Positions 2,880-2,932 of a DNA stretch of 6,054 nucleotides are shown here, piece after piece. Source of the stretch: a virus (lineage: Duplodnaviria; Heunggongvirae; Uroviricota; Caudoviricetes); IMG/VR virus record IMGVR_UViG_2537561509_000007. One strand, written 5' to 3'. A program made the translations under genes and the position numbers. The notes under the pieces are model-generated. The model did no database searches, was not told the DNA's origin, and saw only the letters and a list, made by a program, of their open reading frames with translations. Each line of letters opens with the position of its first letter. Within the stretch, counting starts at the first letter, position 1.

Positions 2880-2932
2880 TTTCTGGTGACGTTTGGCGGT
2901 ATCAGTTTTACTCCGTGGCTGCTCTGCCGCCC
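2880..2932 (+). ncRNA. dicF: DicF small RNA, the antisense regulator of ftsZ
   Basis: TTTCTGGTGACGTTTGGCGGTATCAGTTTTACTCCGTGGCTGCTCTGCCGCCC, followed by TTTTT. This matches my recollection of the 53-nt K-12 DicF at 52 of 53 positions (one A-to-G change near 2918). It lies about 170 bp upstream of dicB, as in Qin. Confidence 0.85.

Follow-up and report, generated by a model that had tools for sequence, protein, structure and literature searches.

The stretch of DNA analyzed here (6,054 nucleotides, referred to as the window) carries a dicF gene within a dicBF-type operon, preceded by a phage immunity region and followed by a truncated recombination region, as summarized in Table 1. Aligned with the genome of Escherichia coli O157:H7 strain Z887, the window shows a single mismatch along its full 6,054 bases; positions 1 to 5785 were found at 100% identity in many other O157:H7 genomes. 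At ydfJ, Z887 carries three or more lambdoid prophages in tandem (loci L002, L008, and L009; NZ_CP062761.1, 2815000 to 2921000), and the window sits in the final one, beside a truncated ydfJ. The ydfJ-rspB interval is the site of Qin in K-12 and of Sp11-Sp12 in O157 Sakai, and Sp11-Sp12 encode T3SS effectors and PchB (PMC2608844; PMC9997748). We also observed that the prophage holding the window contains three DUF1076 (NleG-type) genes and a PerC-family gene, consistent with the Sp11-Sp12 locus. A DinI-like gene in the window is part of the junction to the prophage that follows; tail-fibre, NleG-type (DUF1076), and DinI proteins are repeated identically at two junctions in Z887, and such repeats fit the recombination-prone character of the Sp11-Sp12 region (PMC9997748).

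Table 1. Features of the 6,054-nucleotide window, in order of position
Feature	Coordinates	Strand	Evidence
YdaT-family gene	1-281	-	Pfam, RefSeq
Cro-like regulator, P22_Cro family, divergent from repressor gene	265-507	-	Pfam P22_Cro, 57.7 bits
CI-type repressor, 212 aa, HTH and Peptidase_S24	599-1237	+	Pfam; lambda CI alignment
Putative PL-like promoter TTGACC-17-TAAACT (1322-1350) with abutting operator-like palindrome (1303-1322)	1303-1350	+	Promoter scan; palindrome
ydfA-like DUF1391 gene, first in operon	1530-1682	+	Pfam DUF1391, 104 bits; 88% DNA identity to K-12 ydfA
216-aa ORF, in place of K-12 ydfB/ydfC	1682-2332	+	RefSeq hypothetical from 1694
Small reverse ORF	2333-2554	-	
Untranslated leader of dicF precursor, conserved	2602-2879	+	Homologous to K-12 Qin from 2602 on
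dicF, 53-nt DicF sRNA, G39 allele	2880-2932	+	52/53 vs K-12 b1574; Rfam RF00039, 75 bits
DicF Rho-independent terminator	2895-2937	+	MFE structure, Rfam consensus structure, terminator scan
Sole change vs K-12 dicF: nt 39, A to G (A39G)	2918	+	Pairwise alignment
Long-range helix, 5' arm; putative RNase III site giving 72-nt species	2942-2960	+	Perfect inverted repeat with 3071-3089
Long-range helix, 3' arm, just upstream of dicB	3071-3089	+	Perfect inverted repeat
dicB, 62-aa cell division inhibitor, diverged allele	3107-3295	+	Pfam DicB PF05358, 125 bits, full length; RefSeq dicB
ydfD-like DUF1482 gene, last of dicBF-type operon	3292-3480	+	Pfam DUF1482; RefSeq
Truncated recE (N-terminal) joined to C-terminal integrase fragment	3573-5350	+	Pfam Exonuc_VIII and Phage_integrase fragments; RefSeq partial pseudogenes

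The dicF sequence of the window is TTTCTGGTGACGTTTGGCGGTATCAGTTTTACTCCGTGGCTGCTCTGCCGCCC. A preliminary description had placed a copy at exactly these coordinates and held that it matched K-12 DicF at all but one position. Alignment of window positions 2860 to 2960 with K-12 MG1655 dicF (b1574, NC_000913 1649382-1649434, plus 20 nt on each side) bears this out, with 52 of the 53 positions the same, and leaves no room for a much weaker match. The identity extends beyond the gene, as the 111 nt upstream and the 23 nt downstream are the same as in K-12. Moreover, the Rfam covariance model search that the preliminary description had called for gave a full-length match to DicF (RF00039; window 2881-2932, plus strand, model positions 1 to 52 of 52) at 75.0 bits (E = 9.6e-16), well above the gathering score of 48. 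The setting is that of a dicBF-type operon, with a DUF1391 gene upstream of dicF, dicB 174 nt downstream, and then a DUF1482 gene. The match is far beyond chance; given the identical flanks, the Rfam E value, and dicB immediately downstream, the idea that the resemblance is accidental can be set aside altogether. Weak Rfam matches to CssrB, mir-43_2, and ZEB2_AS1_2 were also obtained in the window; all lie far under their gathering scores and were taken as chance. For CssrB, at 5840-5978 on the minus strand, the match reached 25 bits (E = 0.049), the gathering score being 76.

The elements through which DicF is known to act are retained in this copy. Nucleotides 1 to 38 are identical to K-12, so that the 5' seed UUUCUGGUGA, used for xylR, is present and the positions altered in the DicF3 and DicF11 mutants (nt 6-8) are intact; the seed is unpaired in both the minimum free energy (MFE) and the Rfam structures. 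The 3' segment complementary to the ftsZ ribosome-binding region is likewise kept, with nt 32-38 and 40-53 the same as in K-12, including nt 32-36 (CUCCG), which published mutants show to be necessary for control of ftsZ. The terminator is formed by the stems 2895-2901/2925-2931 and 2903-2907/2917-2921 followed by a T-run at 2933-2937, and the terminator scan returned a match at 2915-2930 plus CCTTTTTAAA.

Next to the terminator, the sequence around dicF contains features that may be involved in processing. A 53-nt DicF is reported to arise by termination and RNase E cleavage, and a 72-nt species by RNase III (PMC9438474). On this basis, RNase E would make the 5' end of the window's DicF at the 3' edge of the leader, where the junction is AU-rich and identical to K-12. 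Downstream, a perfect 19-bp helix (2942-2960/3071-3089) brackets 110 nt between dicF and dicB. Counting 72 nt from 2880 leads to about position 2951, inside the first arm, and this makes the helix a candidate RNase III substrate. One base per helix arm differs in K-12, and each of these differences turns a G-C pair into a G-U pair, with pairing kept.

Similarity to the K-12 Qin prophage is limited to four patches: the ydfA region (1492-1673, 88%), the stretch from the dicF leader to mid-dicB (2602-3211, 92.8%), a short spacer (3519-3567), and intQ with the prophage end (4805-5402, 90.8%). Within the second patch, conservation is concentrated in RNA that does not code for protein. The leader portion 2741-2879 is 97.8% identical to K-12, and the whole non-coding block from 2741 to 3106 (366 nt) is 97 to 99% identical, segment by segment. 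By comparison, the DicB protein is 63% identical to K-12 DicB, and DNA identity within dicB falls from 87.6% over codons 1-35 to 46% over codons 36-62. What has been conserved is thus chiefly the RNA block and not the whole division-control cassette. The other shared traits are the terminator, the long-range helix, the downstream dicB, the ydfJ-rspB site, and a related integrase, whereas Qin ydfB and ydfC are replaced in the window by the 216-aa ORF, for which neither a Pfam match nor homology to Qin was found. This ORF and a 124-aa ORF in the neighboring prophage (L008 18282-18656, minus strand), in which no Pfam domain was found, both start with MEFKDLP and both lie just upstream of a dicF leader.

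The immunity region differs in type from that of Qin, which has DicA and DicC, whereas the window has a CI-S24 repressor, a P22-type Cro, and YdaT. The repressor combines a helix-turn-helix domain (HTH_3, 21.5 bits, just below the cut-off of 23) with a Peptidase_S24 domain (48.5 bits). Its similarity to DicA (135 aa) is confined to 37% identity over 65 aa of the HTH, the S24 domain being extra. Against lambda CI it aligns across both domains, with the catalytic Ser (ESDSMS versus EGNSMT) and Lys (IRKL versus FKKL) kept. Furthermore, the full 212 aa of the repressor align at 98.1% identity with the protein annotated as "repressor protein cI" in phages vB_EcoS-813R8 and vB_EcoS-640R1; in strain Z887, RefSeq annotates just its C-terminal 112 aa. 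Protein alignment detected no similarity to DicC in the Cro-like protein. With neither a 135-aa peptidase-free HTH repressor nor a DicC-type Cro, the window does not belong to the DicA/DicC immunity type. The preliminary description was right that the neighboring repressor is unlike K-12 DicA. Its broader proposal, that the division-control module had been conserved while the immunity module had been exchanged, holds for the immunity swap (CI-S24 and P22-type Cro); as for the conserved unit, this is mainly the non-coding block described above, the DicB protein having diverged.

Two operator-like palindromes share the form ATGTTTT-N5/6-AAAACAT. One, at 582-600, lies between cro and cI and directly precedes the start of the repressor gene; the other spans 1303-1322, and a weaker copy is present at 536-554. 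The palindrome at 1303-1322 abuts the -35 element of the sole good promoter candidate upstream of the operon, a layout that fits control of this putative PL-like promoter by the repressor. The linker of the repressor lacks an Ala-Gly (or Cys-Gly) scissile bond, having QQAASWS (Ala-Ala) where lambda CI has VQAGMFS in the alignment, and RecA-dependent induction of the operon is for this reason uncertain.

The gene order of the window is found in intact phages. Phage Tritos has the order cro, cI, ydfABC, dicF, dicB, ydfD, recE, xis, and int, with a misc_RNA annotated as "DicF antisense sRNA," and vB_EcoS-813R8 and the PPompW phages have the same operon order as the window. dicF thus occupies an early-left (PL-type) lambdoid phage operon, the location also stated for Qin (PMC6832061). 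All of these phages keep the full recE-xis-int region and carry A at DicF nt 39 (A39), whereas in the window a 414-aa ORF opens as RecE (Exonuc_VIII) and continues into a C-terminal integrase fragment that overlaps it, with xis and most of recE and int deleted. The loss of these genes indicates that the prophage is excision defective. A possible functional analogue of DicF in this position is lambda kil, which encodes a PL-operon protein that blocks division through FtsZ on derepression; Kil is a protein and DicF an antisense RNA, and the two have no sequence relationship.

The same phages also allow the dicF allele to be compared with the immunity type. A link between the two was considered and discarded, since the same CI (98.1% identity) occurs with A39 in vB_EcoS-813R8. 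A39 is also found in PPompW phages with DicA/DicC, and Tritos, which has a 139-aa DicA-like CI, carries A39 together with C53G. The dicF allele and the immunity type therefore assort independently, and the presence of the dicF block beside a different immunity region is ordinary lambdoid mosaicism.

That DicF blocks ftsZ translation by antisense pairing, as the preliminary description stated, is established (PMC5069750). The same description had proposed to check that the single substitution lies outside the ftsZ-pairing region; it lies instead inside the 3' pairing segment, at a nucleotide that is not Watson-Crick paired in either register examined. Within DicF itself, the partner of nt 39 is U27 (window 2906), in the stem of the terminator, and A39G converts this A-U pair to G-U. 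The predicted MFE of the hairpin (stem 2895-2931) shifts from -15.9 kcal/mol to -15.4 kcal/mol in the window's allele, with the structure unchanged, and the Rfam consensus is lower-case at both positions of the pair.

For ftsZ, published mutants define the register. DicF9, in which nt 32-34 are changed from CUC to GAG, abolishes ftsZ control, and DicF23 (G36C) has a compensatory partner, ftsZcomp23 (C-17G) (Balasubramanian et al. 2016, PMC5069750, supplement oligonucleotides). The latter pair sets G36 opposite C-17, U37 opposite A-18, and G38 opposite C-19. The positions of DicF9 and DicF23 are unaltered in the window. In this register, G-20 of ftsZ lies opposite nt 39 and forms a 1x1 mismatch with it whichever allele is present, with an evaluated duplex energy of -9.9 kcal/mol for A39 and -12.7 kcal/mol for G39. 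In the alternative register, the first that RNAduplex returned (G36:C-12), nt 37-40 are placed in an internal loop and both alleles have the same energy; this register was rejected, as it conflicts with the published compensatory pair. Full-length RNAduplex energies were also discarded as evidence of ftsZ targeting, since a control with random windows showed them to have no discriminating power and the value for ftsZ (-38.5 kcal/mol) is near the genomic median (-39.3 kcal/mol), and the argument for ftsZ rests accordingly on the published mutants and not on energies.

The predicted pykA duplex involves nt 30-42 and positions -18 to -5, and its G36:C-11 pair agrees with the published pykAcomp23 oligonucleotide; here A39:U-15 would become G-U, at a cost of 0.6 kcal/mol. 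In the predicted manX duplex, between the DicF 3' end and positions +35 to +52, A39:U+49 would become G-U at a cost of 0.5 kcal/mol, and the duplex agrees with the published site at G145-C162 of the mRNA (PMC5861419). These duplex energies come from simple nearest-neighbor models that contain no accessibility terms. Since the known partners of nt 39 are all U or a mismatch, A to G is the most conservative change at this position, and in these models A39G is a near-neutral transition that keeps every known pairing.

The 53-mer was matched in 3,823 to 3,947 of 5,426 complete E. coli genomes, at up to 7 places per genome. When the exact alleles were counted in 20,395 complete E. coli records, G39 was found in 493 and the K-12 allele in 3,761. 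Searching one genome per species with the exact 53-mer of either allele returned two E. coli records only, a result that carries no information on other genera. Among the matches listed, the exact G39 allele occurs in O157:H7 and O145 genomes, and the surrounding 561-nt region is present at at least 99.8% identity in O157:H7, O26, and O121 genomes. Multiple dicF copies in different O157:H7 prophages have been published (PMC5069750, Balasubramanian 2016; PMC7873438), with four copies in Sakai and 86-24 and a reported expansion of DicF from one to four in enterohemorrhagic E. coli (EHEC) (PMC7873438; PMC11774850, citing Melson and Kendall 2019). O157:H7 strain TR01 has four places matching the 53-mer, the same number as in these reports. 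More generally, the presence of multiple cryptic prophages bearing dicBF operons has been noted for many pathogenic strains (Ragunathan and Vanderpool, PMC6832061). By its source genome, the window holds one of these EHEC O157:H7 copies, from which nothing in it differs in kind; it is a correct re-identification of an already known element and adds no new biology.

We considered whether G39 marks a functionally diverged DicF paralogue whose target spectrum has been retuned, for example, toward tighter pairing with the mRNA for a pch (PerC-family) virulence regulator that this prophage encodes. The late region of the prophage does contain a PerC-family gene (PchB, by locus; PMC2608844; L009 4394-4708; NZ_CP062761.1 2895393-2895707), and RNAduplex gave -49.8 kcal/mol with G39 against -45.2 kcal/mol with A39, a change of -4.6 kcal/mol that arises as G39 pairs with C+59 and extends the helix. 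However, in a control set of 2,570 windows of 180 nt, drawn at random from the same loci, 11% gain at least 4.5 kcal/mol with G39, and the pch energy falls only at about the 5th percentile of random windows, so that it is not distinguishable from chance; co-adaptation of G39 with pch mRNA was for this reason dropped as unsupported. The occurrence of exact G39 in the listed O157:H7 and O145 genomes, and the recurrence of the 561-nt region across O157:H7, O26, and O121, would also fit such a retuned RNA, but this association is explicable by phage ancestry alone, and a transition at a U-pairing RNA position is the most conservative change available. A diverged paralogue is highly improbable.

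It is also conceivable that the copy is a silent relic, intact only through recent insertion or recombination and never transcribed from a defective prophage. The deletion of xis and of most of recE and int, the missing canonical Ala-Gly cleavage site in the repressor, and the fact that the natural inducing conditions of K-12 dicBF are unknown (PMC6832061) all point in this direction, and a defective prophage of this kind (recE'-'int deleted) could be permanently silent. Against this, the non-coding block is conserved above its flanking genes, in comparison both with K-12 and with many phages, which argues for selection on the RNA, and pairing in the long stem survives the differences from K-12. 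Moreover, DicF, from whichever copies contribute, is reported to be detected microaerobically in EHEC and to have phenotypes there (PMC11774850; PMC7873438, citing Melson and Kendall 2019). We consider a relic that is never expressed distinctly unlikely. The preferred reading, to which we assign a probability of roughly 0.93, is that positions 2880 to 2932 are an intact dicF within the early-left operon of a defective O157:H7 lambdoid prophage, under a CI-type repressor, and that A39G is near-neutral.

The sequence analysis itself establishes the identity and family of the RNA, its structural elements and gene context, the type of repressor, and how the alleles are distributed. By analogy with the literature on K-12 and EHEC DicF, the source of what follows on processing, the need for Hfq, the control of targets, and the part played by the repressor, an intact dicF in this setting might act as follows. 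In a lysogen, the operon would presumably be held off by the adjacent CI-type repressor at the operator abutting the promoter at about 1303-1350. Once transcribed, DicF would be released from a polycistronic RNA with the order ydfA-like gene, 216-aa ORF, leader, dicF, spacer, dicB, and ydfD-like gene. RNase E would cut its 5' end, and its 3' end would be set in one of two ways: by termination at the DicF hairpin and U-run, giving 53 nt, or by RNase III acting within the 19-bp helix, giving about 72 nt. With Hfq, nt 32-42 of DicF would pair with the ftsZ ribosome-binding region and block FtsZ synthesis. DicF would also act on pykA and manX through its 3' segment and on xylR through its 5' seed, and in EHEC it would activate pchA; according to a review, DicF activates pchA and represses stx2A in EHEC (PMC7873438, citing Melson and Kendall 2019). 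In this way, DicF ties prophage carriage to host cell division, to sugar metabolism, and, in EHEC, to type III secretion. The Z887 genome has no dicF annotation in RefSeq, and knowing that this copy is intact and lies behind a CI-type rather than a DicA repressor is of use for annotation. Moreover, G39 offers a natural tag that tells this copy from A39 copies and could help in the design of allele-specific expression studies.

A second dicF-like element was observed in the neighboring tandem prophage of Z887, which carries ydfA-ydfB-ydfC and a DicB protein identical to that of the window, so that the same protein (WP_000449175.1) is encoded twice in this genome. There, a 34-nt short dicF variant, UUUCUGGUGAUUCGGCGGAAACGGAUAUCCGCCC, is located on the minus strand (L008 17946-17979; NZ_CP062761.1, about 2832945-2832978). 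The variant keeps the 5' seed and has a new short terminator hairpin (-10.7 kcal/mol), and it lacks DicF nt 12-45, the segment that pairs with ftsZ, pykA, and manX. The leader and the long-range stem are kept around it. The Rfam DicF model gave no match to the variant even at E values up to 10, and the variant is not mentioned in the DicF literature examined; a 76-nt stretch around it was found in 443 of the 5,426 complete E. coli genomes. One speculative and, in our view, unlikely extension is that EHEC keeps a graded set of dicF alleles (A39, G39, and the 34-nt short form), at the ydfJ locus and elsewhere, each behind a different repressor (S24 CI-type here, DicA-like elsewhere), so that different signals, such as DNA damage versus low oxygen, would release different subsets of the DicF regulon. 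If this were true, metabolic or virulence control would in some cases be uncoupled from the cell-division block.

Finally, a sub-threshold Rfam match to STnc100 spans the dicF-dicB spacer (2930-3139, plus strand; 39 bits against a gathering score of 47), sharing the outer long stem and the hairpin CACCUGGAGGCACCAGGCACC. STnc100 matches at full score (105 to 148 bits) were obtained in other parts of these prophages, at L002 2009-2181 and L008 31106-31306, downstream of Q-type antiterminator genes.
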